Counted from the first letter of the whole stretch, positions 10,471 to 59,064 are shown. The stretch: DNA of 59,064 nucleotides, filler included, from Asterionella formosa (GCA_002256025.1; 4 parts of 4 records of this genome joined end to end with filler, not necessarily neighbours in it); one strand, 5' to 3'. Notes: generated by a model not told the origin, from the sequence alone. A program made the numbers and translations.

Positions 10471-11666
10471 CCAACATGAACACTACAACACATAACAAGA
10501 CTACCTGAAAACGCATGTTTCCTATTGATTGCCTTACATATATCTTAGTGACGGAGGGTTTTAACTGGACTATTAGCTATATTATTAAGCGACATGGGTC
10601 TAGTTACTGTACCTTGCTTGCATTTGCATATTCTATCTATGCATAGCAACACATGCTACCAGTACCTGGTACCGGTAGCCATAAAACTATTTGCTACATA
10701 TAATACAAGACAAGCACAAGTAAGCAGAGGTCCGTGAAAGTTTACTGCAGAGCAGTATGCTGCAGTATCAGTATACCATCAGTATTATCATTTTCAAAAT
10801 ACCATACTGTTCTAGAATTTTACCAGAACAGTATACTGATCTAGCTTGCCAGCATTCTGCTATGTAGGAATCTTACAGAAAATCCTGCATGTATTGTTGT
10901 AACAAAGAATTGGTTTTGTGCGTACATACCGGTAGGCTAGGAACACCAAAACTAGATAAAAATTGCTCCGGACAAGGATCAACAATCAACTAGGTACACC
11001 AGTTCGAAGAATGCTTCAGAAAAACGAAAAATTGTGGTGCAAAATATCTCGCTCATGATTATTACCGCAATTCTGCCAGGCAGATGGAAGTGTTCCTACC
11101 ATCTGCGGGGTCTGTACCACTTCCGTTGGTGTGCAGCATTGGTTGGCGCGCGTCGCCTTTCTTCGAGCACCCCAAGCAATAAATGATAGCGTCAACTGTT
11201 TCCATCCTGCCTAACGTTAGTAGCTTGCAGCACGTGCGGGAGTAATTAGCTGGTACCGGTAAAAGCAATGGTACTATGGTACCGAAAACATTACTACCGG
11301 TATATTTACTTCGGTATTATGTACCGGTATGTATGTACCGGTAAACCGGTACCTTGCAACCAATTCAAATGTGAAATGGCGGTTTGTCTGACATGCCATA
11401 CCAGGTTCCGGTAGTCCAAAATTGCAAACCGGCTTATCTTTTGTATGCTGTGCACCGCGAAACTACGTGTGGGTACCGGTACTAATGGGAACAAGCAAAT
11501 AATCAAAACACGTATGTGTGTATGAACTGTGTTATACCAGGTACCAGGTACCGCGGTCCCGGTCTACCGGTACATGGTTCTTGACAACCCATGTATATGC
11601 TTCTACCGGTACTTGTTGGGCATCATCCTGTTGTTGATCCACCACCGCTTGCGCTCCGAATCCACC

Positions 11667-14420
11667 ATGAGGAATCTTGAACGTCTCGTACTCCAACACT
11701 TTGACGCCTATCAGCGTGGAAAAGAGGTGCACAAGTCGCATCGAACAAACGGAACTGTCGAGTCGCGAATCGTCTTGTTGAAAGAAGAACTCCAAACATT
11801 GATGCTCTCGTCTGATTTTAATCAAATGTCATTGGAAGGGCGACAACGCGCTTTACACCCCCAAAATGAACTGATTGCATCACTGCTTCATTGCGTTGAC
11901 GTCGCCATGGCCACTGAAATGACAAATGACTCTCATGATTCCATTTCAGCCATTCTTGAGCTAGCATCTGCTATGACGCCATTTGGAAGTCCAGTCGCTG
12001 AGGCAGTCATTGCAAGAAGCTTAAAGTTCACTGATGTCTCCGTGGAACGAGTCAGAGCACAGGCATGCAAGCTGCTGGGACTCTGTGTGGAAGCAATTCT
12101 GTCGGATCACAATAACCACAAGTTGGCCTTCCTGGAGCGCGATGAGGATCACGTCTGGAAAGATAAATGTGTGAACCTAGCCAAGGACGGCTTGTTACCT
12201 CGGTTGACTGACAAGAGTCAAGCAGTCCGCAAAGCTGCCATCACTGCATGCGGATCCTTTGGTGATACTATGCACAGCGAAATGCTTCAGAGTTTGCTTT
12301 GGAGTCTCAATCACGACCCTTCCGCAGCTAACCGATCTGCTGCAATTGAAAGTGTCCCCTGCAATGTAAACTCCATTGATCATTTGATTCAGAGGGTTCG
12401 CGACATCAAAGTCAATGTTCGAGTTGATGCAATAGATGCCATTCGAACCAAGATGAATGTCGCTGACATGACTTACAGTCAGTTTTGTCTCTTGATTCAG
12501 ACCGGGTTAACTGATCGATGTAAGCAGACACAAGAAGCAACTGCACGTCTCGTGTGCACATCCTGGATCAAGTTTGCCAAATATGATCCCATCGAATTGA
12601 TCAAGGTGGTTGGGCCAATTGTGAATGAAGAAGAGTGCGAGAAGATTGTTGGGGTACTCATGAATTGTGACGAAGCGGAGTTACTCAAGGATTTGTCAGA
12701 TCCTGAAATACGTGCATTCCAGCAAGGCATTTGCCATACACCAACTGTGCTAAGTCATGATTTCGAAATGACCCCTGAAGCTGCATTATTTGCTCGGGTA
12801 AAGGCGTCTCACTCACTCAAATCTAAGGACATCTCTGCTTCGAAAAAGGCAGATATCCTTTTCGATGTGATTCCAGATATTCCACTCCTGTGCCAAGCCG
12901 TCGATAAACTGGTTCAGCGTTTCAGTGAAGCTGTTGCGTCAGATGGTGAAGGGACAGGAGAATGTGAATCATTTCTGTGCCGCCAGCTCCTCCAGTTGGC
13001 TCAGTTAACCGACTTGAAGGAAGAAGGTAGCCGCCGGCACTTCAATGCTGCAATGAAGGCAATGTTATCCTCCGTCGATACTCCCGATGACTTGCTTGAA
13101 GATTGCATTAAGGCCATGTCTAAAGCCCATGACCGAGAAGTGGACTTCTTAAGAAATGTTGCCAAAATTGTAGACGACATGACAGGAGGGTTGGCCGAGT
13201 CATACACTGAAGTTGCCGAGTTCACACGGCTCCGCATCATATCAATCTTGTACGTTGTTCTTGAGAACACTTCGACCGTAATGGCGACGAATCCAGTCTT
13301 GAGGGAATTTTCTTCACATATAACTCTCGCTGTCAACAGTGCTGATGCCATGGTGCGCGAATGTGGTGTTGGTTGTCTTGGACGACTTGCAATCCTCTCT
13401 GATGAATCAACTGTCCTCTCGGACTTCAAACCACTTCTCCTTAAAGTGGCTTCAACGGATAACGAATTAATGGAAATTCGAGCACAAGCCATGTTGGCTC
13501 TTTGCGATTTGAGTCTCCTATTTGAAGGTATTTTGAACCCTGACCCAACTTCAATTGTATCTCTTGTGTCGAAATTCCTCCACCACTCGCAAGCTGGTGT
13601 TGTTGCCTTTGCTGCAGAAGTCGGCACAAAGCTTTTGTTTTCTGGCAAGGTCCATGACAATGCGATTCTTGCTGGTTTGCTTGTTGCTTTTTTTGACAAA
13701 TCATTTGCCGATCTCGCCGAAGAGGAGGATAGCGACGTCACGGAAGTTGGAAGTTTGGTAAGAATGCAACAACAATTAGTGGTTTTCTTTCCTGCTTACA
13801 GTATGAAGAGCAAGGAAGGCAAGCTGGCGCTTATTTCTTCCATTGGCCCAATGTTAAATATGATAACGGCAACGAAGACAAAACGAGGTTCGACATGGAA
13901 CGTCGCCAAAATTGTGGAGTACATTGTATCTACTGTTGCCATCGGAAAGGAACAAGTTGGAGAGAAAGACAGCAATGACGATACTCAGAACAATCAAGCG
14001 ATTGAGCCCAGTGGAGTTCTCCATGCATGCATTGAAGTTTCGAATTTCTTGATTCAGCATGGCGACAATATCAACATGACTCACCTTCGTGGCCTTTGCA
14101 AACTTTTGGGCGGAGCCGATATTGATATTGATGCTGATCACTCCCCGACTGTAGTAGCTCTAAAGTCCAATATTGAAGAACTTTCCTTGCTCATCACCGA
14201 CGATAATTCTCTATGCTCTTTAGCGACTGTCCTAGAATTGTTGGAAGATGTCGAAGACGAAATAAGTGAAGACGACGCGAATGAGAGTGATGAAGAATCT
14301 ATCACAGAGGCGCTTATTCATATGAATATCGATGAAAACAAGGAGAACACTGTCCATATGGGGAAGGCAGACGCCAGACAGGCAATTAACATGAAACTGG
14401 GCCGTGCGACTGTGAATTAA
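11667..14420 (+). CDS. NCAPG: Condensin I HEAT subunit CAP-G (Ycg1/Cnd3)
   Basis: Intronless ORF; likely ATG at 11667 because the upstream extension is TACCGGTA-rich non-coding sequence. HEAT motifs RLTDKSQAVR, DPSAANR, RVRDIKVNVR, GLTDR and DLKEEGSRR, plus a Cnd3-like C-terminal region and acidic tail. Confidence 0.8.
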   Translation: MRNLERLVLQHFDAYQRGKEVHKSHRTNGTVESRIVLLKEELQTLMLSSDFNQMSLEGRQRALHPQNELIASLLHCVDVAMATEMTNDSHDSISAILELASAMTPFGSPVAEAVIARSLKFTDVSVERVRAQACKLLGLCVEAILSDHNNHKLAFLERDEDHVWKDKCVNLAKDGLLPRLTDKSQAVRKAAITACGSFGDTMHSEMLQSLLWSLNHDPSAANRSAAIESVPCNVNSIDHLIQRVRDIKVNVRVDAIDAIRTKMNVADMTYSQFCLLIQTGLTDRCKQTQEATARLVCTSWIKFAKYDPIELIKVVGPIVNEEECEKIVGVLMNCDEAELLKDLSDPEIRAFQQGICHTPTVLSHDFEMTPEAALFARVKASHSLKSKDISASKKADILFDVIPDIPLLCQAVDKLVQRFSEAVASDGEGTGECESFLCRQLLQLAQLTDLKEEGSRRHFNAAMKAMLSSVDTPDDLLEDCIKAMSKAHDREVDFLRNVAKIVDDMTGGLAESYTEVAEFTRLRIISILYVVLENTSTVMATNPVLREFSSHITLAVNSADAMVRECGVGCLGRLAILSDESTVLSDFKPLLLKVASTDNELMEIRAQAMLALCDLSLLFEGILNPDPTSIVSLVSKFLHHSQAGVVAFAAEVGTKLLFSGKVHDNAILAGLLVAFFDKSFADLAEEEDSDVTEVGSLVRMQQQLVVFFPAYSMKSKEGKLALISSIGPMLNMITATKTKRGSTWNVAKIVEYIVSTVAIGKEQVGEKDSNDDTQNNQAIEPSGVLHACIEVSNFLIQHGDNINMTHLRGLCKLLGGADIDIDADHSPTVVALKSNIEELSLLITDDNSLCSLATVLELLEDVEDEISEDDANESDEESITEALIHMNIDENKENTVHMGKADARQAINMKLGRATVN

Positions 14421-14702: not shown

Positions 14703-14802
14703 NNNNNNNNNNNNNNNNNNNNNNNNNNNNNNNNNNNNNNNNNNNNTTAATTAATTAANNNNNNNNNNNNNNNNNNNNNNNNNNNNNNNNNNNNNNNNNN
14801 NN
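14703..14802. other. Assembly gap with artificial six-frame-stop linker (same at 29500-29599 and 44290-44389; plain N gap at 36486-36974)
   Basis: N44-TTAATTAATTAA-N44 layout repeated three times. Confidence 0.95.
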
Positions 14803-15257: not shown

Positions 15258-15366
15258 CCTGCAATTTACTACGGTAGACTACATACTATGCTGAAACTGA
15301 AGAATTAGCTATCTTTATCTTAGATTAAAATGTTTGTTAAAGCAAAATGACCGCAACTTGCACAGG
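15258..15366. mobile_element. MITE-like element copy A (ends ...ACCGCAACTTGCACAGG|TA)
   Basis: Aligns in reverse orientation to 27882-27989, with a 28-nt identical end agcaaaatgaccgcaacttgcacaggta. The left end is degenerate (cctgcaattt...cggta). Confidence 0.65.
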
Positions 15367-15500
15367 TACCCATGGCAATTTTGGAGGGCATCCACGGGAA
15401 AATACAATGCATGAAAAATTACCTATTTCTATTCCGTTCCTTCTCGTTCATCACAGTCACCCATACCATATATCTTGGTAGCCATTGATCAGCGTCCACC

Positions 15501-18500
15501 ATGTCGAAAAGCAATGGCAGCAATGTCACCCGCGCCCGCCCCATTCACGTGCCCGGCCGAGAGATCCGTTCCGTGCCCGATGACAACGAGCCATCTTACA
15601 GCTACGAAGAAAAGTCCTTTCTCGCGGCGGAACACGACGTGGAAGACGAATTTCTGAACCGACTCAGTGGGAACCGGCGAGATTCGGGAGGGGCCTTTTG
15701 GAGGACGAAACCGGCGGCGAGTGCTGAACCGGCATTTTCCAGTGTGAGCATGATGAGGAATGAAACCGATGCACGGGGCAATGGGCGACCGGTGGTAACT
15801 GAGATTCAAGTGAACGCGACGGAACGGGGGGCAGATGTGAGTGCTGCGCTTGCGCTATTGAGCTTTGTTCGTGTCCGCGATGGAGAGTGGCTGTATTACT
15901 TCCAGTCAATGGAAAGAAAGGAAGCAAGCAACGGAGCGGCAAAGTCAATGCGGCGGTCGTCGTTGTCTCTGTTGTGACTGCTTATTTGAATCCGTTATTT
16001 GTTCGAGCGTGACTCACTCATGAGCTATCTTGTCGATCAACTTTAGCGGACCAGTTTTACCGAAAGTCGAAAGGAATCGAATGCCTCCTCCCAAGTCTCA
16101 ACCTCTTCTTCGCTAGGTGCATCTTCTGTACGAGACACGAAGAAGAATACCGTACAAAGGAGCCGCGACCGACGCAACAAGTTGGACGCACAGCATTCGG
16201 ACTTCGATCTAGGACGCATTGAATGCATAGAAGATACGCCTCCAATCTTGATTCCACCTACAGATGGATCGTTGTCCAGAGGTGCATCGGACCAGTCTGG
16301 AATATATAACAAGGCGCTTATACCGAGGAATGGGGTCCTGCTAGGAAAATCCTCCTCCTTGATTTTCCCCACTGGTGTCGAAGGTCCCGCTAAAGAATCT
16401 TCGGAGTCAGCTGCTTTCAAGCTCGGGAAAGTCAATAAAGTTAACTTATTGTTGGACCAGTGCGAAGCGATCCGTTTTCCCTTTAAAAGGAAGCTCTGTC
16501 TAGAAAATTTGAATTTGGCCGCTGCTGACATTCCCATGAAGGACCTAATGGGCACGGCATTGGGAAATTCTTTGCATAAACTATCTTTGGCTGGAAATCG
16601 ACTCACAGGGATTCCAGATGCGTTGGTGGTTTCATTTCCAGTCCTAAAGCATCTTGATTTAAGTAATTGTGATTTGGTGTCGCTCCCAGAGAAGTGGTTG
16701 TTGCCCCAGTTGAAGCGACTTAATTTGTCGCAAAATCGCCTCACGGACTTTCCAGATGAGGTATGTTGTGTTACGTGCTGTGCTGTGATGCGATTCATGG
16801 GATATATATATACATTGAATGAAAATTTTCCAACTTAACCATTTTAATATTAATTGTGACAGATCATGCTGGAAGGGCTCCTAGCTCTCGAGGAACTCAA
16901 CATGGAAAGCAACAAGGTATCGGAAATCATCATCCCCAGCAACACAAAGCTCATGAGCAAACTAGAAACACTCAACCTTAGCCATAATGACTTGTCGTAT
17001 TTGCCCGAAGACATGGACCAACTCAAATCTCTCCGCATCTTGAAAGTGGAAAGAAACTTTCTCGAAAAAGTTCCGATGCGCATTTGCGACATGGATATTC
17101 GAAGCATTGATGTATCAAGAAACCCAATCATAATGCCTCCAATTGAAACATGTGAGAGAGGAATCTGTAGTATGAAACGATACTATCATTGCCTGCGATC
17201 GGAAGAGCACTTCCAGCATAAATCTCCAAAAGAACTACAAAGGATTACCTCGCAGCTAACAAAGAAGGATGAGAAATGTAAATTATTTGGTCGGTTCTTT
17301 GGTAGCAAAGGAACTCCTTCTCATTCAATGAGCAATCTCTCTACCAAGTCAAGTTTTCATGAAGATGCGCAGTCCCCTAAAGACGAAGCTGTCATCCTAC
17401 TGCGCAAAACAAGTGAAGTTGTATTGACTCGTGATCGAAGTATCAGTTGTGGTGAAGTCATGAGTAGGATCACTTCAGCCTCTGATTCGCTCCTCTCGTC
17501 GTCTATTACAGGCGTAATTACGCCATCGCACGACGTTGTCAAATCGACAGTATCAGAAGAATGGATATCTACGCCTGTGGAAGATGTGACTTACAACGAC
17601 ACACTCAAGGTTATTTTTGTTGGTATGGCAATGGCGGGGAAAACCAGCATGATTAAGCGATTGATCGAAGGCCGTAATGCAGATATTCCTTTACGCGATG
17701 AACGTACTATTGGGGTTGATATTTACGAATGGGACCCGAAGACAAATACGGATCGTCGACCAGTCGATACCAAAATGGAACTTGAGGGTGAAGTGAAACA
17801 GGACGTTTTTGCGAAATTTAGTGTTTGGGACTTTGCTGGGCAGCATGTCTATCATGCTACGCATGAATTGTTCTTTTCCCCGCGCTCCTTGTATGTGTTG
17901 GTGTGGGATATGGGTGCAACTAATGAGAGTACAATGCGCCGTAAGTCAACCCTAGCGGAAGACAAAGGCGCCTTCAAGTTGAGCTATGATTCTTCTGATG
18001 AAGAAGACGAAGATGATTTTGTAGCTGAAGAGGAAGAGAGACGAGCAGATCGTGCCTTAGAGCGGGATATAGACGAAAAAGTGCAGTTTTGGGTGGAGTG
18101 CATTCAGGCATGCGCTCCTGGAGCTGCCATTTTACCGGTTGCCACCTTTGATGATTACTTTGACAAAGATGAGGAAGAAGCTAAGCACCGATGCGATGAG
18201 TTGAAGCATCGATTGCTGAAGCACGAAGAACGCCGTATTGCTGGCATTCAAGAACGTCTCGCCAAATACGAAATGGAACACCGCGCCAACGACGCTGCTG
18301 CATTGAAACTTCGAAAGTTACTTTGTCCTTATACGCGGCCAAAGCTCCTCTTCGGTAACGATGGTGAGGAAAGTGTGGTCAGAGTAAGCGGAACGAAATA
18401 CACTGGGTTTGAAAGGTTGACCGAGAAGATTGTCAACATGGCTACTGGTCGCGATAAGGCTGGTTCCAAGTATCATATTTTCCGTGGTCATGTTGGTGCT

Positions 18501-20981
18501 CAAATTCCTCGAATGCGTTTGGAAGTCAGAGATGCTGTTCGCGGTATGCGAGATCGGTTCAAGGTGGTCGAATGGGGATATTTCCTCAAGACGCTGGCCG
18601 CCGAAAGAAATTTAACAAATGTGGATGATATCAGTGATGCCCTGCATTTCCTTACCAATATTGGAGAGCTTTCGTTTTTTGGCAATGTATTCCCTGACAG
18701 ACAGCAGATGGAAATGATGCTTTTGCAGGGTGATGGCAAACAGTGTAGCAAGGTAGGCAAAGCATGTCAAGAGTTGGAAGTTCAGACCGCTGTCCATAGT
18801 TTTGATGATGATGATGACGACGATGATGAGGATTTCGACCAATCCCGTGCATTGATGTCGATTGATGACACGAACATAACAGCCCCGAGTACTAGAGAAG
18901 ACTTCTCAGTGGGTACATTTGATGATGTTGATACGAATGGGTTATCGCAATTTGTTTTTCTGAATCCCCGTTGGCTGGTAACTGCTGTCGCGTGTATTCT
19001 ACGCCACGATTTGGACCGAGAAATTCGAGAGACTCGTCGATCGTTATCAAATGACGTCAAGAGTGATCATTTCTATAATGCAAATTTAAACTGTCCTGTC
19101 ATTACAGCTGATGATGCCTGTATGTTGTGGCAAAGTAAGCGATTTACAAGGAAGGCTGCTGATCGTGCACAAATATATTCCAACAATATGGCCATAACGC
19201 CGTTCAATTTTCTGCAGCGTCTCCTGGTTCGTTTTGGTGTTTTTGTCCCAATCGATCTAACAATTGAGAAAGCGTTTTTGGGAGGCAAGGAATATGCTCG
19301 CCACATCGTTGACGACGATAAACCTGCCGAAATCATTACGTTTAATACCGAGGTTTCACCGCAAACACCACAATTTTTCTTTTTGCCAAGCTTGCTCGGG
19401 CCTGGAGAACCAGCTGAGGCGTGGACATACAAGAATACTGATAGCTGGAAAGCTACGCTTTGTCACTCAATCCTCTTCCCTGATGGAGTTCCGCCTGGTT
19501 TGATGGAGCGAATAACAGCGTCAGTTCTCAGCAGTGTTTACGCGGTTTCGAAAGGTCTTGAGCAAGTTGTCTTGACCACCGGTTTGAAAGGGCAACCTAC
19601 CAAGACACTTGATGGTGCCCTTTGTGTGAAGGAAATTCTTTGCTGGAGAACTGCATTCTTTTTGAAGCTTGGGACTGTTGTCAGGAACGACAGCAGCGGT
19701 GAAATGAAAGAAAGCATTGTTGAAATCTTTGCTCATCTTGTTGACCGCGATTCTCACCTCTGCGTCGGTTCGAAGTACATGGGCTCGGGAACTAGACGTC
19801 TCATAGTGAGTGCAAAAGGACAAGTGGGTGATGGTGGTCGCAAAATTTGGAGCGGTGGTTACCTATTAGTGTTGAAGTCTGTCAATCGACTAATGAGTGA
19901 ATACGGAGGTCTTGAGTTCGAGAAACAAGGTTTCTGCCCTGAGTGCCTCTCCAAGAAGGCTGTGAGCGAAGCTAGCCATTGGGACTGGACTGTCATTCAT
20001 AATGCTGCCCAGAACGGCGATGGTACGATGCGATGCGGACACGGCCATCGCGTGGACACTCGTCTGATCACTGGTCCTTGTGGATCACTGACGAAGCAAA
20101 GGATCGAGCACTCCATCCCCACTCAGAAGTACTACGACAGCGAGCCAATTGTTCCAGTCAACGATTTGCTGCGGGGTATTGTTCTGGTTGGACTTTGGGA
20201 TGGCAAGACTCGTAAGATTGTTCGAGTTGGTTCTGGTTTTGTTGTTGATAAGAAGAGAGGACTGATTGTAACTGCAGCGCATACTCTCATGAATATCTGG
20301 GGTGACAAGAATTATCCATTTGGAGAGAACTATTATGGCATGCGCGAAGGCAAAGTTGTGATTGGTGTTATCCCTCGTAAGAAGGAGTCCGATACAACTG
20401 ACGGGACTGAGGCAGTATTCAGATACTTCGCAAGCATTGTTGCCAAAGATACAACTATCGAGAGTACTGGAGAGTGCCAAATAGATGCTTGTATTCTTCG
20501 AATTACAACTCGAATGGAAACGGATATAAGTGGCAACGGAGATGGCTGTGGAGATCAACCAGAAATTTTGCTTCAGAATAACCCTGAAGCGTTGAAACGA
20601 GAAAAATTTCAACAACTCAAAGTAACGGAAAAGTGTGAACTTGATGAGCAAGTCCGTATCCTTGGATATAATCAGGGTGGGGAAGGAATTCTGGGCCCCG
20701 GGGAGAGTCTCAACCGATACATGGACTTTGCCCGAGGATATGTGTGTAAGAAATTCGCTAGAGCGGACGATATTGGACTTCGTCGTCGTTTCAAGCCACG
20801 TGAGGAGATTGTTGTCATTTGCCCAACAATTGGAGGACATAGTGGCGGTCCTTGTGTGAATCAACAAGGCGAAGTGATTGGAATTCTCAGCCGAGCAGAC
20901 CCCGCTGAGAGTCAAAGGTGTTACCTCGTCCCTGCTTCAGCTTGGAAGTCGCTGCTGAAAGAAGCGAAAAGTACATATTGA
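15501..20981 (+). CDS. Roco protein: LRR - Roc GTPase - COR - C-terminal trypsin-like serine protease, 3 exons, about 1722 aa
   Basis: Exons 15501-15836, 16047-16760, 16863-20981 with phase-0 GT..AG introns. LxxLxLxxN repeats; P-loop GMAMAGKTS, RTIGVDI, WDFAGQHVYHATHELF; COR motifs LHFLTNIGEL, VFLNPRWL, FFLPSLL, PPGLMER; CPEC...CGHGH; protease motifs GSGF, TAAH, IDACILRI, GHSGGP. Confidence 0.9.
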
Positions 20982-21088
20982 GGATGTCAATCCAGGTAGT
21001 TTCTATAATATTGGTGGTTAGGATACATTTCTTCATGGAGTAGCTCGTCTTTATAAGCTGTGTTGACAGGTGCTAGGACAAGAAATGA

Positions 21089-23026
21089 TTATATGAGCCC
21101 CTCGGTCTTTAGTTTGTCCATCGCAATCCAATGGTGGATTGGGCTAACAAGACTATTGGCGGCACTTGCCCCACTCAAAGCAACTGCAGGAACCCCTATG
21201 CCAGGAAAGATGGAATCTCCCGCAAGAACAAAATTATCCCAAGGCGTAGATCCGTCCTTGAGATAATCCTCTGTTGCAGCGCCATAAGTTCCCATCGGCC
21301 TACGAAGGAAGCGTTCATGTGTTTTGGGTGATCCAATCAAGTAATATACAACACGATCACGAACGTCTGGAATCACACTCTCAACTGCCCTCCATAGCAC
21401 CTCTGCTCGTTCCTCCTTGCATTGAATATACTCGGGTGAGCTTATTGCTAGGTCCTTCCAAATCTCAAACGGCTCGTTTCCTGCTCCATAGGCATGTATG
21501 ACCAAGTACCCTTCTGGCGCAAGATCACGGTCAATGACACAAGGGTTAGAGACTGCAATCATGTTGAGTTCTCCGCATGGCCCATCTTTAACTCCATCGA
21601 CCACTGATCCGTCACCAGCTAGGGATCGATCCATGACCGTGTAGTGAGCTTCCATTTTGTCCAGATTCAATCCATCGGCGTCTATCGCAAGGTGCAAATG
21701 CAAGAAGGATCCTGTCATTTCGGCAGCATCGCATTTGAAAAGGAGACTGTCCTCCTTTTCGATTTTCAATGGTCTCAAAGAAATGTGACTTTTGCTTTCA
21801 CCAACAACCCAACTGGTGGGTGCTAGTCGCACCTTCGTTTGTGGTATGAAATTATTGAGAATATTCTTAGCAAGTGGATTTTGAATTAAATTCGTCAACG
21901 ACCATACGGGAGCATTGCAAATGACACCTTCCTTGGCCACAACCTTTTTTCCTCCCCGCAAAGTAAGCCCTTCTATTTTTGTCCCATCATATGAAAAATC
22001 TATGCTCTCCACATGTCGTTTCAAATTCACTTTTGACCCATGCTCCCCCTGTTCCACCCCTCGCACTAAGGCATTTATAACTTCTCCAAGGCCTCCCTTT
22101 GGATAATCCAAGGCTGCACCATCCCGATGCATATCATACAAGACATATGCCATGGCCGCTGCTGCGGTGCGTGATGCCGGCAACCCTGACAAAGAAAATG
22201 CTACAGCATCCAACCATGATCGTAACCATGGATCTGACACAACATATTTAGGACCATCCATAAAGGGTGCAAAAGTTCCCTGCGTCAATTCCGTTCCTTG
22301 TCGAATCAATCCCAGCAGGGCTGGAATATACCTCAGCAACGGAAGTAGCGCCGTTGGACCAGCTCTCATGGCCATGGCAGGTATTTCAACGGCACCTGCC
22401 ACTAGGGGGTATGTGACACGGCGTAGTTCCTGAAATTCTTCCTGTGCACGTGTCCCTCCAAATTGAGCCAATGGCCCTTGTTCAAAGACATTGGGTCCCA
22501 ATTCCACCTTCCATCTGAGTTCATGTGTTTTGTTGCAAGGATTTTCAACCATTCCCCATCCATCGTACCGGATCCATTCAACAGACTGTCCGACAGCATT
22601 CAGTACTTGTCGTAGTGGGTTGAATGGCTTGGCGCTGCAGCCCAAGACAATTGTGGGCCCCGAATCAAAAGTGAATGTAACTCCGTTGGGTGCAGTTCTG
22701 TTAAAGGCATGGGCACATCCTCCAGGTAGGTAATGAGATTCGTAAATCCCAACGTTCTTATTGTAGAGTGTATTCAGAATAGCACCAGCACAGAGGCCAC
22801 CAATGCCGGCTCCGACAATGGCGATATCCACGTGTTCCACATTGCTGGTATGATCTGAACTAGTATCGGCACTCGCCATTGGGCTCCATTTGGCTCTAAT
22901 CCTCTGCAGCGGAGTGAACGCTACACACATTGTGGCGGTCCCATTCGTCTTGGCAAGTAGTAGTAGTAGTAGTAGTAGTAGCAGTAGTTGTTGTTGAAGT
23001 AACAGTGGCAGTAGCCAGCACCTCAT
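21089..23026 (-). CDS. Plastid-targeted carotenoid isomerase (CRTISO)-like FAD oxidoreductase
   Basis: Likely ATG at 23026 (MRCWLL..., poly-Leu signal, CVA-FTP cleavage motif). Rossmann motif IVGAGIGGL, then PGGCAH, FDSGP, YPKGG, TGSFLHLHL, GSPKTHERFLRR and GDSIFPGIGVPAVALSG are CRTISO/phytoene-dehydrogenase family motifs. Confidence 0.85.
   Translation of the reverse strand: MRCWLLPLLLQQQLLLLLLLLLLLAKTNGTATMCVAFTPLQRIRAKWSPMASADTSSDHTSNVEHVDIAIVGAGIGGLCAGAILNTLYNKNVGIYESHYLPGGCAHAFNRTAPNGVTFTFDSGPTIVLGCSAKPFNPLRQVLNAVGQSVEWIRYDGWGMVENPCNKTHELRWKVELGPNVFEQGPLAQFGGTRAQEEFQELRRVTYPLVAGAVEIPAMAMRAGPTALLPLLRYIPALLGLIRQGTELTQGTFAPFMDGPKYVVSDPWLRSWLDAVAFSLSGLPASRTAAAAMAYVLYDMHRDGAALDYPKGGLGEVINALVRGVEQGEHGSKVNLKRHVESIDFSYDGTKIEGLTLRGGKKVVAKEGVICNAPVWSLTNLIQNPLAKNILNNFIPQTKVRLAPTSWVVGESKSHISLRPLKIEKEDSLLFKCDAAEMTGSFLHLHLAIDADGLNLDKMEAHYTVMDRSLAGDGSVVDGVKDGPCGELNMIAVSNPCVIDRDLAPEGYLVIHAYGAGNEPFEIWKDLAISSPEYIQCKEERAEVLWRAVESVIPDVRDRVVYYLIGSPKTHERFLRRPMGTYGAATEDYLKDGSTPWDNFVLAGDSIFPGIGVPAVALSGASAANSLVSPIHHWIAMDKLKTEGLI
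22956..22981 (+). repeat. (AGT)n microsatellite encoding the poly-Leu signal peptide core of the CRTISO-like gene
   Basis: The agtagtagt... run reads CTA CTA (Leu) on the coding strand. Confidence 0.85.
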
Positions 23027-23685
23027 TGTTACTGAAACTAATGCTGTGGTGGTTGTAAAAATGTTCCTATTATTGAGTGGATTCATTGCTCGCTTGCACG
23101 CATCAGAACGATCATCGGTTCTCGGGCCGAGAAATAAAACGATACATTTGATATGTCGTGTCGTGGTTTCTGTTTCATCTGGCTGAGAATGATACCGGTA
23201 CCAGGTACCTGGTACGAGTGCCGGTATTCTAGTAAGTTCTTGGAGTACCTCTTTACGCATTTACCATAGTAGAGCTATTATACGATAGCTACGTCGTAAG
23301 AGAAATAGGCCTGCATCGCTGCCTGGGGGTTAGTGAGTCAGGTCTAATTAGTCAACATGCCGAACTACCGTACTCGTCCCGTACGACAGCAGTAGAATGC
23401 AAGTGAATGCAATAGGTCCTCGTCCACGCACGCGAATTGTCTTGGGATCGTCAAGTACGTGTTAACACAAGATATTTCGAACCTACTACACCGCACTCCT
23501 CGCTTGCTTGCCGAAGAGCGGATGCGCATGCGAACCTTTTGTTGCTGACAGCATGATGCTGGCTGTGAGAGTGATGACAACGAGCGATCGAGCAGATTGA
23601 TGAGAAGACAAGACGTTGGTCTGACACACTTTCACTTACCAACTTGCTCATAAATTAACAAATACATACCAACAGATACTCAACG

Positions 23686-29195: not shown

Positions 29196-29599
29196 ATAGC
29201 TCTATGTAAAACTACATGAATGGTCATAAGGCATGATCATTTGAGAAGGAATCTCTGTACTAAGCTAAACGCAAATTTCTACTGATTTAATATTTCAAAC
29301 AGAATCATGATCGATATTCATAATTAGCACATGAATGTTCCCAGCTCCAGGGGCGGAATTTCTGCAACCCTAAGGGTCGTTCTTATCATTCCGAATTTGC
29401 TGTATCATTTCCGGGTTGTGGGCAAAAAATGACGGTTGGTATCAAAACACGGTATCAGCAACGGTAACTTGATGGTATCAATTTTGTATCATTGATACAN
29501 NNNNNNNNNNNNNNNNNNNNNNNNNNNNNNNNNNNNNNNNNNNTTAATTAATTAANNNNNNNNNNNNNNNNNNNNNNNNNNNNNNNNNNNNNNNNNNNN

Positions 29600-36485: not shown

Positions 36486-37095
36486 NNNNNNNNNNNNNNN
36501 NNNNNNNNNNNNNNNNNNNNNNNNNNNNNNNNNNNNNNNNNNNNNNNNNNNNNNNNNNNNNNNNNNNNNNNNNNNNNNNNNNNNNNNNNNNNNNNNNNNN
36601 NNNNNNNNNNNNNNNNNNNNNNNNNNNNNNNNNNNNNNNNNNNNNNNNNNNNNNNNNNNNNNNNNNNNNNNNNNNNNNNNNNNNNNNNNNNNNNNNNNNN
36701 NNNNNNNNNNNNNNNNNNNNNNNNNNNNNNNNNNNNNNNNNNNNNNNNNNNNNNNNNNNNNNNNNNNNNNNNNNNNNNNNNNNNNNNNNNNNNNNNNNNN
36801 NNNNNNNNNNNNNNNNNNNNNNNNNNNNNNNNNNNNNNNNNNNNNNNNNNNNNNNNNNNNNNNNNNNNNNNNNNNNNNNNNNNNNNNNNNNNNNNNNNNN
36901 NNNNNNNNNNNNNNNNNNNNNNNNNNNNNNNNNNNNNNNNNNNNNNNNNNNNNNNNNNNNNNNNNNNNNNNNNNAAGATGAGGATAAATAAAATATGGTA
37001 TTTCTTTATTAAACTAAATCTATTGACCCTTGTAGTGTCAATCGGAAACAATGAAATGATACTAGCAGAGTAAATAAGACAATAACCAAATTGCT

Positions 37096-41450: not shown

Positions 41451-44400
41451 ATTACTTGACTCATACATACGTCTGTAAATAAAAACTATCATGAATATAG
41501 GATCAAGGGTATCGTACGCTAAGTGGCAAAGGATTTTTACATATATGGTAGTTTCTTGATCAAAAATATGATCAATGTACCATATAATTATGATCATGCA
41601 ATAAACTTTTACCGAGCTTGACGTATGATGATACTATCATAGTTATAATACCATTGCATCATAGAATTAGTTAAACGTGGTCATATGATTTGTATACTTT
41701 TGTCATACATCTATCTTAGCATGATCGTAATTCTCATCGATATCACTGTCTAAAATAGGATGAAATTGATCGAAATTTAGAACTATATTTAAAAATGGTT
41801 TTATGTTTCTATATCTTGAGTGGCTACAGAATGTTCTACAATGCTCTCATCGCAATGATTGGTGCTTCAGCTTTCACTTCCACATTCCCCCCAATCCAAT
41901 TCTGAAGGTTCTTGTACTGGTTACCTTGCCGTTGTTCCCCTGCGTTGTTCCATTTACTCCTGAGGGTTCTGAGTTTGCATTCACGCACTATTGAATCCGT
42001 TTCGTGTTAATATCAATAAATCCTGATTCTTGAAAATAAATTTTGATCTTTCATTTTCTCATCAACGACACCGTTCATCATATGATCAAAATTTTATGAT
42101 CAAAGGTATAGGATAAACGAATCAAAATTGATTGATTAAAGATTATTGTTTATACTGGAGTAGTTGCTCATGCATGCAACCCCGTCCCCCCCCCTGTATA
42201 TAGTACGGAAGTGATAACCCCCAAGCTACCAAAATTTTATGTCTTGCAAGAATTATCGCAGCATGCATGCATACATACATGACTCCTACTGGTAAATACA
42301 ATGCGGAAATGTTGACCACGTGACTACCAATATTATAGGTCCTGTAGAATTATCGCAAAATGGTTGCATATCTAATGAAAGGGGCGGGAGGAGTCATCCA
42401 TGCTGCACCTGTATAGTATGAAATATGGAAATGATCAAATATAGTCTACACAAGGAGCAGTGCATCGCTCATCTATGCCCTGCTGTTGTTATTTTAATTC
42501 CTATGAAATCTCTTGATCTGTTCTGCGCTTTTCGCCACAATTGTTTTCATTGGATGTTTCACTGAAAAGCATTCGAATTGATTGTGCTTCGAACGAAGCA
42601 ATGATCAAAGTCCACCCCATTTCAGAATGGTGAGTCTCACAACTAAGCATTAGCCAGTCGATTAAAATTGGACTGTCTTTTGTGCACCCTCGTTGTGTTT
42701 GTGCTTGACTTGGCAACTGACAGCCAAGCAAGAGCAGCCAAGGCAAGGTTATGCCACCATTTATTGTCTATACGAGTTTCGAATGCGTTCAGCTATGATA
42801 ACTTTTGCTCCCCCCTCCTAAACACTATCTCACCACCCTTGTCATAGATTTTTCTTTATCCTTTGGCTTCACAGACCCAGGCTACTTAATGCCTTCATCT
42901 GCAAGTTCATTCAAGCAGGCCCACATTGGCGTCAAGAAAACCTCAACCCCGATTTTCCTCACATGTTCCACCCATTGACTTCTTCATTGATGAAGTTGAG
43001 GTAGCTATATTGACGACATCAGGGGGCGCAGGTTGTGTGTATAACTAGATTGATGATGCCGAAAGCATTGCTTCCTTTTCCCGTACTAGGTACCTATTTG
43101 TCAACATTGTTTGGGTCAATCTATTCTTGTTTCCGCAAGACCAGAAGCAATTATCCCTTAACTTCTCCTCCCAAGAACTTTCATTTCTCTTTCACAATTG
43201 TCCTGATGTTTGCAGAGCATTTTTTAGTTCCCTTTTGATTTTCCCACTGGTTTCGATCCCTTTTGCATTCAAGTCAAGAAACAAGCAACAACTCATTGAG
43301 ATTTCTGGAGGTTTTGGTCAGTGGCACCATAAAGCAACAATCAACAGGTCATGGCGGCTGTTCTCCATTTTCTGTAGCAAGTGACAAAGTGACATTCAAG
43401 AAGGGTCTGGGATCATTGGGGAGAAAAATTAGCTAGTAGGATTCTCTGTGTTTGCCCCCGCCCGTTTGGCAGTCATTCTACCATTGCTTCCTTGCACCAA
43501 TCAATACTAGCTAGTATAACTAATGAAAACCGTAATTAGATGAAATGTGACTTCCGGTTTCTAATATTTTACATTGTTGCACTACTGAAACTTGAATCCA
43601 TAAATGGGCATTCAACTTGTGCTTCTTGCATTTTTGCAGTATAGACTGGCTGGTGTTCGATAGGCCAAAGTGTCTCGCTTTTCATGAGCATCTACAAAGT
43701 AGTGCTTTTGTCGAGGTTTATGTCTAAATCCAACTGCTGCCATCCTTTGAAATATTCCAGATACATCAAAGAATACGCTCCTGTCTTCAAATGTAAGGAA
43801 CTAGTGGTACGATGACAAAGAAAATCTAATGAGACATGAAAATTACAAAACCAGAATCACAGTGTTACTATAAATAGACAGTCTCATGCTTCTTTGTGGT
43901 GCATATCGCCTGCTATCATGCTGCTTTTCAATTCTAGATGTATTAAGTTCTTGTTAGAGAGACGATGTTATGGAGAAGTAGATTGCGGAAATATTCGTCT
44001 TGTGTGAAGAGCCATTTCGTTTTCATTGGATTTCTTTTCAAGCTCTTAACAGATTGCATAGGACGAACATACTGTGCAATGTAGATGATGATTCATCAAA
44101 GACATATGATGACTTGAACGACAAATGAAGGTTTTATCACAAACACTCGTTCCTTTCGACAAGGCTGGTTTGTTGTTGTTGCAAGAATCAGATTGAGGAC
44201 TGGCGAGGATGATGAGCCAAACCACATTACTCTAACTGGTACATTATCCTACCAAGAAATTTAAATAAAGGAACCTAAAAGAAACAATANNNNNNNNNNN
44301 NNNNNNNNNNNNNNNNNNNNNNNNNNNNNNNNNTTAATTAATTAANNNNNNNNNNNNNNNNNNNNNNNNNNNNNNNNNNNNNNNNNNNNAAGCTGGATGG

Positions 44401-53619: not shown

Positions 53620-54879
53620 TCATCCTCCAATCAATGTCATTGGTCGATTATCATTGGCTTTTACAATTCCCTCTGCTGTCCCATGTCCTCCCAAAACTGC
53701 ATGTTTCTTTTGGATAGCATAATGAATCAGTGGTTCAAGACTTAGTCCACGTCGTAAGGCATCACGTAAACTAACTTCACTTGATCCAAATAAACATACT
53801 TTAAGCTGTCCATCGGCAGTGATACGTAGTCGATTGCACGAACCACAAAAATGTTCCGACATGCTAGTAATAAAACCAACACGACCAGTAGCAGATGTTG
53901 CAGAATCCTCTTCTCTTGTTGTACTCCACCATTTGGTTGTATCGTTTGGGTCCGATGGTACCAGGGAGCGTAGTCCTGGCAATTGTTGTTGCAATGTATC
54001 CACCATGGTCTTGTAGGAAACAAATCTCTCCCGATTCCATCCATTGTCATGAAATGGCATCCATTCAATAAATCGTACATCAACCCCCATGGGTGTAAAT
54101 GTAGTGACAAATTCCATCAATTCATCATCATTGAATCCATTCATAACAACACAATTGATTTTCACTTTCAAGTGTGTTTGTGTCGCCGCCAATTCAATAG
54201 CCTTTAATACCTTTTCTAGTCCTGGTCGTCGTGTAATTTCAATAAATCGATCATGTTGTAATGTATCTAATGATATATTGACATGTGACAATCCAGCCTC
54301 CATCAATGGTTCCAATTGTCGTACCAACGTGAGACCATTTGTTGTCATACCAATGTGTTTGGTAGATAGTCCTCGGACTAAATCTACAATATCTGGTCGT
54401 ACCATTGGTTCACCTCCAGTAAGACGAATTTTAGTAACACCGTGTGTCACAAATACTTGAGCAATGTGCAATAGTTCGTCTGTGGATAATAAATTCGACT
54501 TGGGACTTAATGGTACCCCCTCAGGTGGCATGCAATATTGACATCGTAAGTTGCAACGTTCAGAGACTGACAATCGTAAATAGGTATGATGACGATTGTG
54601 TGTGTCTGTCAATAATTGTTGTTGTTGTTTTAGTTGTTCCTGCTGTGATGGAATAGGTGGAAGTTGATTGTAAATGTCATCCAATGAGAATGATGATTTT
54701 GTTTTCGTGGTCTTGTTGAGAAAATGGTTGACAGGATCCATTGAAGTATCCATGGCAAGTTGATTTCGCAATGTTTGCAGTCGACTTGTGGATAACCAGC
54801 GTTGTGCGGGTAGTTGTAGTTGTTGGTTGTGATGGCATAGTATGGACGACCCTGTTTTGGAAACGCGAGCAAACATCAT
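53620..54879 (-). CDS. CNX2: GTP 3',8-cyclase, molybdenum cofactor biosynthesis protein (MoaA/CNX2/MOCS1A) with mitochondrial-type presequence
   Basis: YLRLSVSERCNLRCQYCMP (radical SAM CxxxCxxC), KIRLTGGEP, RFIEWMPF, FCGSCNRLRITADGQLKVCLF, C-terminal RPMTLIGG. First ATG at 54879. Confidence 0.95.
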   Translation of the reverse strand: MMFARVSKTGSSILCHHNQQLQLPAQRWLSTSRLQTLRNQLAMDTSMDPVNHFLNKTTKTKSSFSLDDIYNQLPPIPSQQEQLKQQQQLLTDTHNRHHTYLRLSVSERCNLRCQYCMPPEGVPLSPKSNLLSTDELLHIAQVFVTHGVTKIRLTGGEPMVRPDIVDLVRGLSTKHIGMTTNGLTLVRQLEPLMEAGLSHVNISLDTLQHDRFIEITRRPGLEKVLKAIELAATQTHLKVKINCVVMNGFNDDELMEFVTTFTPMGVDVRFIEWMPFHDNGWNRERFVSYKTMVDTLQQQLPGLRSLVPSDPNDTTKWWSTTREEDSATSATGRVGFITSMSEHFCGSCNRLRITADGQLKVCLFGSSEVSLRDALRRGLSLEPLIHYAIQKKHAVLGGHGTAEGIVKANDNRPMTLIGG

Positions 54880-55489
54880 GGTATTGCGTTTCAATTCAAT
54901 TCAATTCTGTTCTGTCCTCCCTTGTTTGATGGATGGGGCTGAAGGATAAGGAAGGCAAAATGCTGGTATATATAATTGATTGAATTTGTTCAATACAACC
55001 CTTTGCTAGCATGTAACGGTTTATATATGTAGGTATATACAACAACAATAGAAAGTAAGACTATTGTTCTTTGGGTTGCATCCCACTCATCTACTGAATT
55101 CCAAATCAAGACGTGGTGCGTACTGTAATAGAAAACTGTGGCGCTCACAAAAAATTAAGAGGAAAGAAACTCAAGAAATTAGTACCGGTACCGGTAGTAG
55201 TGTCATACAAATACCGGTATATACAAGTATTTCATATATCCATAAGTAGGAGTATCACCATCATGAGAGCCATGCGGCTGATCATCCGTGGAAATATTCG
55301 AGTGGTATGTCATTTATTTACAAACAACATTTCATTTGCTTCCAAGAAGTGCTGCTTCTCCTTGTGTTGTTCCGAACATCCTGCTGCCTCCTGTGATGAA
55401 TGAATCAAGTGCAAATACCAGTGTCGCTATGTACTCCTAAAAATACCGGTAGACCCCTACTCCTACATGATTGGTCACCAACATAGCAC

Positions 55490-59032: not shown

Positions 59033-59064
59033 TATAATGGCTGGCCTAACTGTTGCGTGTGATG

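Follow-up and report, generated by a model that had tools for sequence, protein, structure and literature searches.

Introduction

In LRRK2 and in the bacterial Roco proteins, the tandem of Roc GTPase and COR domains acts as a conformational switch. According to current work on the bacterial members GTP favours the monomer rather than the dimer, and while LRRK2 is inactive its leucine-rich repeats (LRRs) cover the kinase. HtrA proteases, for their part, rest with an inactive loop conformation until they receive an allosteric cue. Here we describe a gene of the diatom Asterionella formosa that brings these elements together in one predicted protein, with LRRs, a Roc-COR-A-COR-B core, a zinc-knuckle-like element and a C-terminal HtrA-like serine protease. 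The gene lies at 15501-20981 (+) of the stretch of DNA that we analysed, hereafter the window, which is 59,064 nucleotides long and consists of four parts from four records of the A. formosa genome, joined with filler and not necessarily neighbours.

ROCO proteins ending in a peptidase have been recorded in the stramenopile-alveolate-rhizarian (SAR) lineage. Brown-algal ROCO group 3, with three members in four species, carries an additional C-terminal peptidase domain (IPR009003), falls in a clade with other SAR ROCOs of which some likewise have a C-terminal peptidase, and is exempt from the exon shuffling of LRRs; inheritance of the peptidase ROCOs from a common SAR ancestor is proposed in the accessible part of the same study (Front Plant Sci 2024, PMC11378527). 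An excerpt of an earlier paper places one atypical Ectocarpus ROCO nearer to diatom ROCOs (PMC3341825). In prokaryotes, the accessible sections of a survey of nucleoside triphosphatase (NTPase) conflict systems describe trypsin-like effectors that are often inactive (Kaur, Burroughs, Iyer and Aravind, eLife 2020, PMC7159879).

The Asterionella gene resembles the SAR peptidase ROCOs, as far as the available text of PMC11378527 describes them, in its LRR-ROC-COR arrangement followed by a C-terminal PA-clan peptidase, in its few copies and in its unshuffled LRRs, which occupy two large exons rather than shuffled 72-bp exons and so match the group 3 type. This likeness is one of shared architecture; the single brown-algal match (Scytosiphon, P0317) lacks a peptidase and covers 6% of the query. 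In contrast to the brown-algal LRR-ROCOs of groups 1 and 2, the gene shows neither expansion nor variable exon-shuffled LRRs. With LRRK2, LRRK1, CtRoco and MbRoco it shares the LRR-Roc-COR-A-COR-B core, the LRRs standing ahead of Roc as in LRRK2 and CtRoco. The output differs, being a protease here, a kinase with WD40 in the LRRK proteins and none in CtRoco. Further differences from the LRRK proteins and bacterial Rocos are an acidic loop and two helices in Roc, a poly-Asp loop in COR-A and the absence of ankyrin and armadillo repeats, and the DFAGQ motif has Gln where LRRK2 has Arg (profile alignment). The bacterial conflict systems offer a more distant parallel. They too combine an NTPase switch, GAP1 included, with a trypsin-like peptidase, and among them are dead trypsin domains; however, in the accessible part of PMC7159879 they are diversifying prokaryotic operons built on STAND, MoxR-vWA or GAP1 NTPases, whereas the gene described here has Roc-COR.

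Results

A single spliced and expressed gene encodes the whole protein

An open reading frame (ORF) scan found three open frames in one phase on the + strand, at 15501-15977, 16047-16838 and 16860-20981. The exon structure was derived from the public protein P0002 (1,722 residues, 100% identical over the query), from which the spliced translation differs at one residue (132 S/L). The result is one three-exon gene encoding a protein of 1,722 residues, with its ATG at 15501 and its stop codon ending at 20981 (Table 1). The ends of the exon 1 peptide map to 15501 and 15836, with a GT donor at 15837. The gene is free of N runs, the closest lying at 14703-14802.

RNA contigs from four runs (three studies), which alone cannot prove transcript ends, were aligned to 15301-21200. 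Both intron joints are present in all four runs, that of intron 2 at 16758/16861 (102 nucleotides skipped, cut +2). One contig of 1,408 nucleotides from run X3 spans 15471-17190 with both introns spliced out, and another from the same run (4,452 nucleotides) covers 17220-21200 unbroken, from upstream of Roc to past the stop. Part of the stretch, at least, is contained in 20 of 22 listed public runs, and seven contain at least half of its sampled words; 19 of the listed runs are recorded as RNA, and the runs stem from 16 studies, for the most part metatranscriptomes of lakes and fresh water. The gene is real and expressed, and its splicing and gene model are established here. The first-pass annotation had set the same start and stop exactly and had left the introns unmentioned; its expectation of a single transcript is borne out by the contig from Roc to protease and by the evidence that follows.

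The exon-3 ORF (16860-20981) measures about 1,371-1,373 codons from stop to stop and runs unbroken from Roc through the protease, with zero stop codons between the two over 1,371 codons. Transcripts of relatives flagged complete in MMETSP (P0012, P0038, P0074 and P0089) also carry Roc and Trypsin_2 together. Because of the uninterrupted frame, the RNA contigs and these complete transcripts, it is very unlikely that the protease is encoded separately. A gene-model artefact, in which adjacent Roco and protease genes were misread as one, is barely credible: the same evidence speaks against it, as does the retention of the fusion in 96 of the 120 relatives listed, and nothing was found in its favour beyond the limit on transcript ends given above.

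Some RNA passes through intron 1 unspliced. A contig of X7 (270 nucleotides, 15807-16076) does so, and the intron bins have non-zero depth; this signal could be a retained intron, pre-mRNA or contaminating DNA. Both intron lengths, 210 and 102 nucleotides, are multiples of three, and read-through of intron 1 meets a stop at 15975-15977.

LRRs and a Roc-COR-A-COR-B core precede a protease

From the N-terminus, the protein consists of a disordered region, about eight LRRs, Roc, COR-A, COR-B, the zinc knuckle and a PDZ-less HtrA-type protease. No Pfam family matches the first 255 residues. The repeats, matched by Pfam LRR_8/LRR_4 (E about 3e-15), comprise seven canonical LxxLxLxxNxL units and one irregular unit within residues 264-450 of the full-length protein. 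A hydropathy scan gave no signal peptide, transmembrane segment (maximum Kyte-Doolittle 19-residue mean 1.41; -0.31 within the first 40 windows) or localisation signal, and since signal peptide and membrane anchor are lacking the protein is predicted to be cytosolic. Searches of NCBIfam returned just generic LRR and HtrA-motif matches, far under their cutoffs. In the ESM Atlas the best cluster, at 0.85, has Trypsin_2 in 100% of its members and Roc in 26%, and is probably the Roco-peptidase family's own; the remaining matches, to generic Roco/MFHAS1 clusters at 0.76-0.78, serve as leads only.

Roc and COR-A are recognisable by sequence. A family profile of 75 members, searched against Protein Data Bank (PDB) sequences, matched LRRK2 (E 8e-32), LRRK1 (E 5e-30), the Chlorobium tepidum Roco (CtRoco, E 6e-21) and the M. 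barkeri Roco (E 1e-18), the LRRK2 alignment running via Roc into COR-A as far as LRRK2 residue 1612 and thereby covering the COR-A stretch 1510-1612. The G1 and G3 motifs that carry the Roc assignment (GMAMAGKT and DFAGQ) are at least 95% conserved in 89 sequences, and these intact motifs predict guanine-nucleotide binding.

COR-B has no Pfam or sequence-profile match and was assigned at the level of predicted fold. An AlphaFold2 model of the Roc-COR region (781 residues, 64-sequence alignment) reached a mean predicted local distance difference test (pLDDT) score of 80.9 and a predicted template modelling (pTM) score of 0.81, its low-confidence parts being the acidic loops. VIA-align superposed it on LRRK2 1328-1811 (Z about 23), LRRK1 632-1161 (Z 24.5) and CtRoco 446-890 (Z 16.8-18.2), and model residues 1-605 on the RocCOR of MbRoco2 (Z 26.1). 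Up to its last residue, 781, the model aligns with LRRK2 as far as 1810/1811, with LRRK1 to 1161 and with CtRoco to 890; the assignment of COR-B relies on what we take to be the domain limits of LRRK2. The protein is a member of the Roco family with Roc, COR-A and COR-B all present, the first two as judged from sequence profiles and the predicted model and the third from the model.

Two helices of about 35 residues flank Roc strand 5 (model residues 143-177 and 197-232, pLDDT > 90). The first comes after the acidic loop and has a mean identity of 0.81 in the 89-sequence alignment. Together these inserted helices (window 18012-18350, model residues 143-232) form a family-specific protrusion.

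A putative zinc element is joined to an HtrA-like protease

The element between COR-B and the protease is modelled confidently (pLDDT about 90) and sits just before the protease. Its four ligands, C15, C18, C48 and H52 in the numbering of the C-terminal model, are at least 90% conserved in a 75-sequence alignment, and this putative C..C..C..H element would bind zinc.

Pfam Trypsin_2 matches residues 1122-1340 of the exon-3 ORF with 53 bits, above its cutoff of 27.6. For the C-terminal 362 residues, an AlphaFold2 model made from the same 75-sequence alignment scored pLDDT 90.0 and pTM 0.81. Foldseek matched its residues 82-362 to Rv3671c, DegQ, DegP, DegS and HtrA1 (E 1.5e-12 to about 1e-10). 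With VIA-align the match to DegQ has Z 22.8 and a root-mean-square deviation of 3.0 over 195 residues; those to DegP, DegS, plant Deg1 and HtrA1 are similar (Z 22-23) and cover nearly the whole protease domain of the target, including almost all of DegS-deltaPDZ (about 195 residues). In sequence alignment, GSGFVV...GLIVTAAH and GGHSGGPCVNQQGEVIGI stand in register with the His and Ser motifs of HtrA1, as do G-x-SGGP...G-x-VIGI. D198 is invariant and H130 and S317 nearly so among the 75 sequences. The predicted domain is a chymotrypsin-fold, HtrA-like one (MEROPS S1C) with His-Asp-Ser triad residues. It differs from the HtrA/Deg proteases in having no PDZ domain, signal peptide or transmembrane anchor, in its identity to them of 13-27%, in the long insertions that separate its His, Asp and Ser segments and in its place downstream of a GTPase. 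No PDZ family of Pfam was found at E up to 0.1, and the protein terminates in the last helix of the protease (model residues 348-361 of 362). Mycobacterium tuberculosis Rv3671c (MarP) is a PDZ-less relative.

The first-pass annotation had read the protein as LRR-Roc-COR, a cysteine-histidine element and a trypsin-fold protease with an intact triad and no signal peptide. This layout stands on Pfam matches, family alignments and structural matches, as do the fold, by the Trypsin_2, Foldseek and VIA-align results, and the missing signal peptide, by hydropathy. It had also placed two acidic insertions in COR; the poly-Asp loop is indeed within COR-A, whereas the other insertion lies inside Roc (Table 1).

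The gene is a conserved diatom orthologue

A first homology search returned 176 proteins at E up to 1e-3, and the following figures refer to the 120 listed. Trypsin_2 is found in 117, together with Roc in the 96 counted above; 21 are shorter, protease-only entries (757-1,061 residues, with or without COR-A) and three are Roc-only. Full-length orthologues among the matches listed align over 99-100% of the query with 45-81% identity. Entries of about 1,350-1,420 residues, of which there are many, begin at the equivalent of exon 3, as expected of prokaryote-style gene calling on intron-containing DNA. The named matches listed are all diatoms (Thalassiosira, Skeletonema, Thalassionema, Nitzschia, Cylindrotheca, Pseudo-nitzschia, Mayamaea and Epithemia), and further look-ups added Odontella and Leptocylindrus. 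Phaeodactylum tricornutum and Thalassiosira pseudonana are not named among the 120 of 176 matches listed, most of which are nameless, so this is no evidence of their absence. Beyond diatoms, two Triparma species (Parmales) have LRR, Roc and Trypsin_2. One of these proteins, P0313 from Triparma verrucosa (2,336 residues), carries DEAD-box helicase domains (PF00270 and PF00271) beside them, which could reflect either a genuine fusion or the merging of gene models.

For a family alignment, members of at least 1,300 residues were kept; of 121, P0002 (a duplicate of the query) and 31 shorter ones were omitted, leaving 89. The P-loop, DFAGQ, His1139, Asp1207, GGHSGGP and the zinc ligands are each at least 95% conserved, which agrees with the intact triad of the first-pass annotation. 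In the more diverse 75-sequence alignment the triad, the P-loop and the four zinc ligands are at least 90% conserved or invariant. By these alignments, the architecture and its sites are conserved far beyond chance.

Against 12 full-length pennate orthologues, identity by domain is 62-72% for the LRRs, 64-74% for Roc, 55-73% for COR-B and 65-80% for the protease; the N-terminus (24-47%) and the linker between LRRs and Roc (17-35%) are lower. The protease is the best conserved domain also across 13 LRR-type orthologues from pennates to Thalassiosira (61-80%). With an identity on a par with that of Roc, the LRRs do not form a hypervariable surface.

A FastTree phylogeny was built from the last 560 residues of 164 sequences (533 trimmed columns, midpoint root); sequences with no G-x-SGGP near the end were dropped, so that pseudo-protease forms were excluded. 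It holds a 103-tip LRR-type clade that mirrors diatom taxonomy. Thalassiosirales branch first, and the Asterionella gene groups with the araphid Thalassionema, sister to raphid pennates. Judged from these comparisons, centric, araphid and raphid diatoms share the gene as a conserved, low-copy orthologue of an old ochrophyte lineage.

A wider family with different N-termini

The same tree contains a second paralogue group, whose 48-tip core (support 0.98) includes second copies from Odontella and from a Bacillariaceae metagenome-assembled genome (MAG); Leptocylindrus sequences and a divergent LRR-type Odontella protein, P0123, stand at its base with weaker support. Members of this second diatom lineage, such as P0129 (Odontella aurita), P0133 (Bacillariaceae MAG) and P0172 (Leptocylindrus danicus), have a long N-terminus in which Pfam recognised no domain at E up to 1e-5. 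The LRR type and this second type occur together in Odontella and in the Bacillariaceae MAG, giving about two paralogues.

An exhaustive search of representative sequences gave 2,711 matches with E no higher than 1e-3, of which 270 had E no higher than 1e-30. Among the best 150 representatives the aligned stretch, at 35-48% identity, is in many cases COR-B, the zinc element and the protease, and that these remain alignable in distant paralogues argues for one functional unit. A Pfam scan (E up to 1e-5) of 33 long representatives found Trypsin_2 in every one. LRRs occur in 3/33 and an N-terminal WWE and/or U-box in 7/33; the other 23 have no recognised N-terminal domain. The tree also holds a small WWE/U-box clade. 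In these forms WWE and/or U-box (E3 ligase) domains replace the LRRs (P0149, P0159, P0175, P0178, P0179, P0186, P0142, P0299 and P0300, all from metagenomes). We compared 11 WWE/U-box-type sequences, two being 90%-cluster mates of others: His, Asp and Ser are all retained in six, and the Asp and the C..C..C..H ligands in all 11. When the zinc and protease module was used for a pattern scan of prokaryotic genomes, a method that detects close relatives only, 12 stretches matched, none of which was confirmed.

Genomic surroundings

Coordinates of the gene, its parts and its two flanking genes are collected in Table 1. The other genes of the window are E2F-like, BTB, DUF4336, MoaA-like and nitrate-reductase genes, and no second Roco gene or tandem copy was found within the 59 kb.

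Table 1. Positions of the Asterionella Roco-protease gene, its domains and motifs, and the flanking genes, counted from the first nucleotide of the window.
Feature	Position	Strand	Details
Exon 1	15501-15836	+	Start codon, 112 codons; disordered Ser-rich N-terminus, no Pfam match
Intron 1	15837-16046	+	210 nucleotides, GT..AG; RNA joint 15836/16047 in X1, X2, X3 and X7
Exon 2	16047-16760	+	238 codons; end of the disordered region and first LRRs; Pfam LRR_8 E 4.3e-13
Intron 2	16761-16862	+	102 nucleotides, GT..AG, within the LRR region; donor GTATGT, acceptor ACAG
Exon 3	16863-20981	+	Remaining LRRs, Roc, COR-A, COR-B, zinc knuckle, protease and stop; single frame
Leucine-rich repeats	16500-17162	+	About 8, split by intron 2; Pfam LRR_8/LRR_4 and motif count
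Roc GTPase domain	17583-18452	+	Pfam Roc PF08477, E 2.4e-14, 54 bits against a cutoff of 27
P-loop GMAMAGKT	17622-17645	+	Motif read in sequence
DFAGQ	17829-17843	+	Motif read in sequence
Acidic loop in Roc	17982-18041	+	Insertion relative to LRRK2 (profile alignment)
TFDD (G4-like)	18144-18155	+	Motif read in sequence
COR-A, winged-helix region	18453-19259	+	Pfam E 7e-6, 26.4 bits against a cutoff of 35.3 (below gathering score)
Poly-Asp loop in COR-A, disordered	18801-18836	+	pLDDT < 50 at model residues 382-450
Linker and COR-B	19260-19901	+	Predicted beta-rich with long terminal helix; limits set from model secondary structure
Zinc-knuckle-like element	19923-20060	+	C-x2-C...C-x3-H, read in sequence as CxxC...CxHxH: Cys1024, Cys1027, Cys1057, His1061 (exon-3 ORF numbering)
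Serine protease, PDZ-less HtrA-type, chymotrypsin-fold	20139-20978	+	Pfam Trypsin_2 E 6.8e-14
Catalytic His codon, TAAH	20280-20282	+	Motif read in sequence
Catalytic Asp codon, IDACIL	20484-20486	+	Motif read in sequence
Catalytic Ser codon, GGHSGG	20841-20843	+	Motif read in sequence
Condensin Cnd3-like gene	11526-14417	+	Neighbour
Amine-oxidase-like gene	21092-23260	-	Convergent neighbour

The stop of the Roco-protease gene and that of the convergent amine-oxidase-like gene are about 110 nucleotides apart (20981-21092); since contigs of X2 and X3 also pass 21200, the 3' untranslated regions of the two genes probably overlap. Elsewhere in the window, a MoaA-like radical-SAM gene of molybdenum-cofactor synthesis (53623-54900, -) and the gene of an assimilatory nitrate reductase (56456-59062, -; Mo-co, cytochrome b5, FAD and NAD domains) are about 1.5 kb apart; the latter continues past the window end, and the enzyme thus adjoins a gene making its cofactor. 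Paired runs of 44 N with 12 bases between them, at 14703-14802, 29500-29599 and 44290-44389, are masked or gap stretches, and a run of 489 N at 36486-36974, also masked or a gap, partly explains an apparent dip to low GC at 36-38 kb.

Discussion

We consider it probable, with some reserve, that the Asterionella gene encodes a cytosolic Roco with a nucleotide-gated HtrA-like protease, and that its place is in an old ochrophyte line of Roco-peptidases rather than in an expanded receptor family. The domain identities, the folds, the intact catalytic and nucleotide-binding residues and the deep conservation are directly supported. The HtrA-like protease, joined to COR-B via the zinc knuckle, occupies the place that the kinase or death domain has in characterised Rocos, and by analogy with these the switch would be coupled to proteolysis. 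In such a mechanism the Roc G-domain would alternate between GTP and GDP, and the COR tandem would pass the nucleotide state on to the unit of COR-B, zinc element and protease, which is rigidly co-conserved, whether or not the oligomeric state changes in the process; there a latent protease would be turned on or off. The first-pass annotation had suggested that COR would dimerise in a GTP-dependent way and so activate the protease, whereas in bacterial Rocos it is the monomer that GTP favours. The short conserved LRR block may bind a fixed partner or autoinhibit the protease, and would not sense variable ligands. To our knowledge, a small-GTPase switch that directly gates an HtrA-like protease has not been demonstrated before as a G-protein output.

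The architecture itself is already recorded for SAR ROCOs, functionally uncharacterised. The first-pass annotation had taken it to be uncharacterised in diatoms, which holds in that a full-text literature search, with most subscription journals outside its reach, found no functional study of a Roco-protease; it does not hold for the architecture as such, peptidase ROCOs being on record in SAR species (PMC11378527, accessible part). As far as its available text goes, that paper mentions the architecture only and does not take up the zinc element, triad, fold, diatom orthology or function. New here are the invariant zinc element, the WWE/U-box sister forms and the subclade without catalytic residues, as well as the verified expressed gene model, the fold-level assignment of COR-B and of an HtrA-like domain, the diatom-wide orthology and the second paralogue.

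Several considerations weigh against a nucleotide-gated protease. We infer GTP binding, hydrolysis, proteolysis and their coupling all from homology. By our own reading of the family alignment, the G4 motif is atypical, with TFDD conserved only at its last Asp, and nucleotide specificity or affinity could differ as a result. The strong conservation is also compatible with a possible role as a conserved death or stress executioner. Finally, the catalytic His is replaced by Arg in five of the 11 WWE/U-box relatives while the fold is retained, and such a loss of catalytic residues within a preserved fold means that the protease domain can act non-catalytically. In this subclade (P0149, P0175, P0178, P0179 and P0299) the Ser is also replaced, by I, F, T or V, in four of five, and by these substitutions its members look like pseudo-proteases. 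Together, the WWE/U-box and LRR variants point to a core cassette of Roc, COR, zinc element and protease with exchangeable N-termini, in which the protease may be retained as a pseudo-enzyme. That the domain is mainly a non-catalytic peptide-binding or scaffold module throughout, catalysis being dispensable, would follow the example of this subclade, in which the Asp and zinc ligands persist; yet in the 89 sequences of the LRR-type clade the triad motifs are nearly fixed and the protease is the most conserved domain of all, and we regard this as very improbable for the gene described here.

It is also conceivable that the protease is constitutively competent and serves in quality control or processing, with Roc-COR and the LRRs serving mainly to bring it to a membrane, the cytoskeleton or the surface of an organelle rather than to switch catalysis. 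Rocos of the LRRK2 type have roles in trafficking and are controlled through recruitment, LRRK2 itself being recruited through Rab binding; the nearest relatives of the protease domain are the HtrA/Deg quality-control proteases, and both the housekeeping-like conservation and the widespread environmental RNA would suit such a function. However, Pfam revealed no PDZ or other substrate-tethering domain and hydropathy no localisation signal, and the fact that distant paralogues, too, conserve COR-B, zinc element and protease tightly together would fit allosteric coupling better than mere tethering. On balance, this account appears improbable.

The first-pass annotation had proposed an immune or cell-death receptor, in which the LRRs would sense a pathogen or danger signal, Roc-COR would oligomerise and the protease would carry out defence or programmed cell death, after the manner of NLR-like sensors that have protease effectors. 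The sensor-switch-effector arrangement is real, by Pfam and structural matches, and a lone conserved executioner needs no diversification. HtrA2/Omi is pro-apoptotic in animals, which lends support to an executioner role. Trypsin-like peptidases recur as effectors of bacterial NTPase conflict systems, GTPase-centred ones included (PMC7159879), and brown-algal LRR-ROCOs have been proposed as immune receptors (PMC3341825, PMC11378527), in each case going by the accessible text. Nevertheless, the gene is a strongly conserved low-copy orthologue whose tree tracks the species phylogeny, and its LRRs are no more variable than Roc among pennates. There are only about eight LRRs over two exons, with no 72-bp repeat exons, and the peptidase-bearing brown-algal group 3 is itself excluded from exon shuffling in the available part of PMC11378527. 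The neighbours are housekeeping genes (condensin, E2F, amine oxidase) with no tandem paralogues, and many lake and freshwater metatranscriptomes, out of 16 studies, contain its RNA, with nothing that ties it to infection. As a Roc small GTPase, the NTPase is not a STAND ATPase; a Pfam scan of the protein found neither NB-ARC nor NACHT, and PADLOC gave weak partial matches alone (LeoA and RT-Protease_XI, E 5e-6 to 5e-5). Because expansion, LRR diversification, clustering and a STAND core are all lacking, the immune-receptor proposal fails at the level of sequence, and we think it unlikely.

We return to a Roco with a nucleotide-gated HtrA-like protease. Roc-COR control over the output domain is still debated for LRRK2. 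If the proposed gating is true, a Roco with a protease output would provide a simple and irreversible readout of the switch, peptide cleavage, in a protein that offers a choice of well-conserved orthologues. More broadly, and only as a tentative and rather doubtful proposition, the family may represent an ancient ochrophyte cassette of a GTPase-gated protease with swappable N-termini, in which the protease has become a pseudo-enzyme in one lineage that has a second enzymatic output, the U-box, and the LRR form is a possible executioner triggered by stress or damage. The case also urges caution, since a combination of LRRs, an NTPase and an effector is not to be read as an immune receptor without a check for diversification. 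For diatoms, in which candidate regulators of stress and death pathways are few, the gene adds a further candidate, a conserved and expressed protease that is predicted to be cytosolic. Its WWE/U-box relatives, with their pseudo-protease subclade, suggest that the family extends more widely and joins GTPase switching, ubiquitylation and proteolysis.

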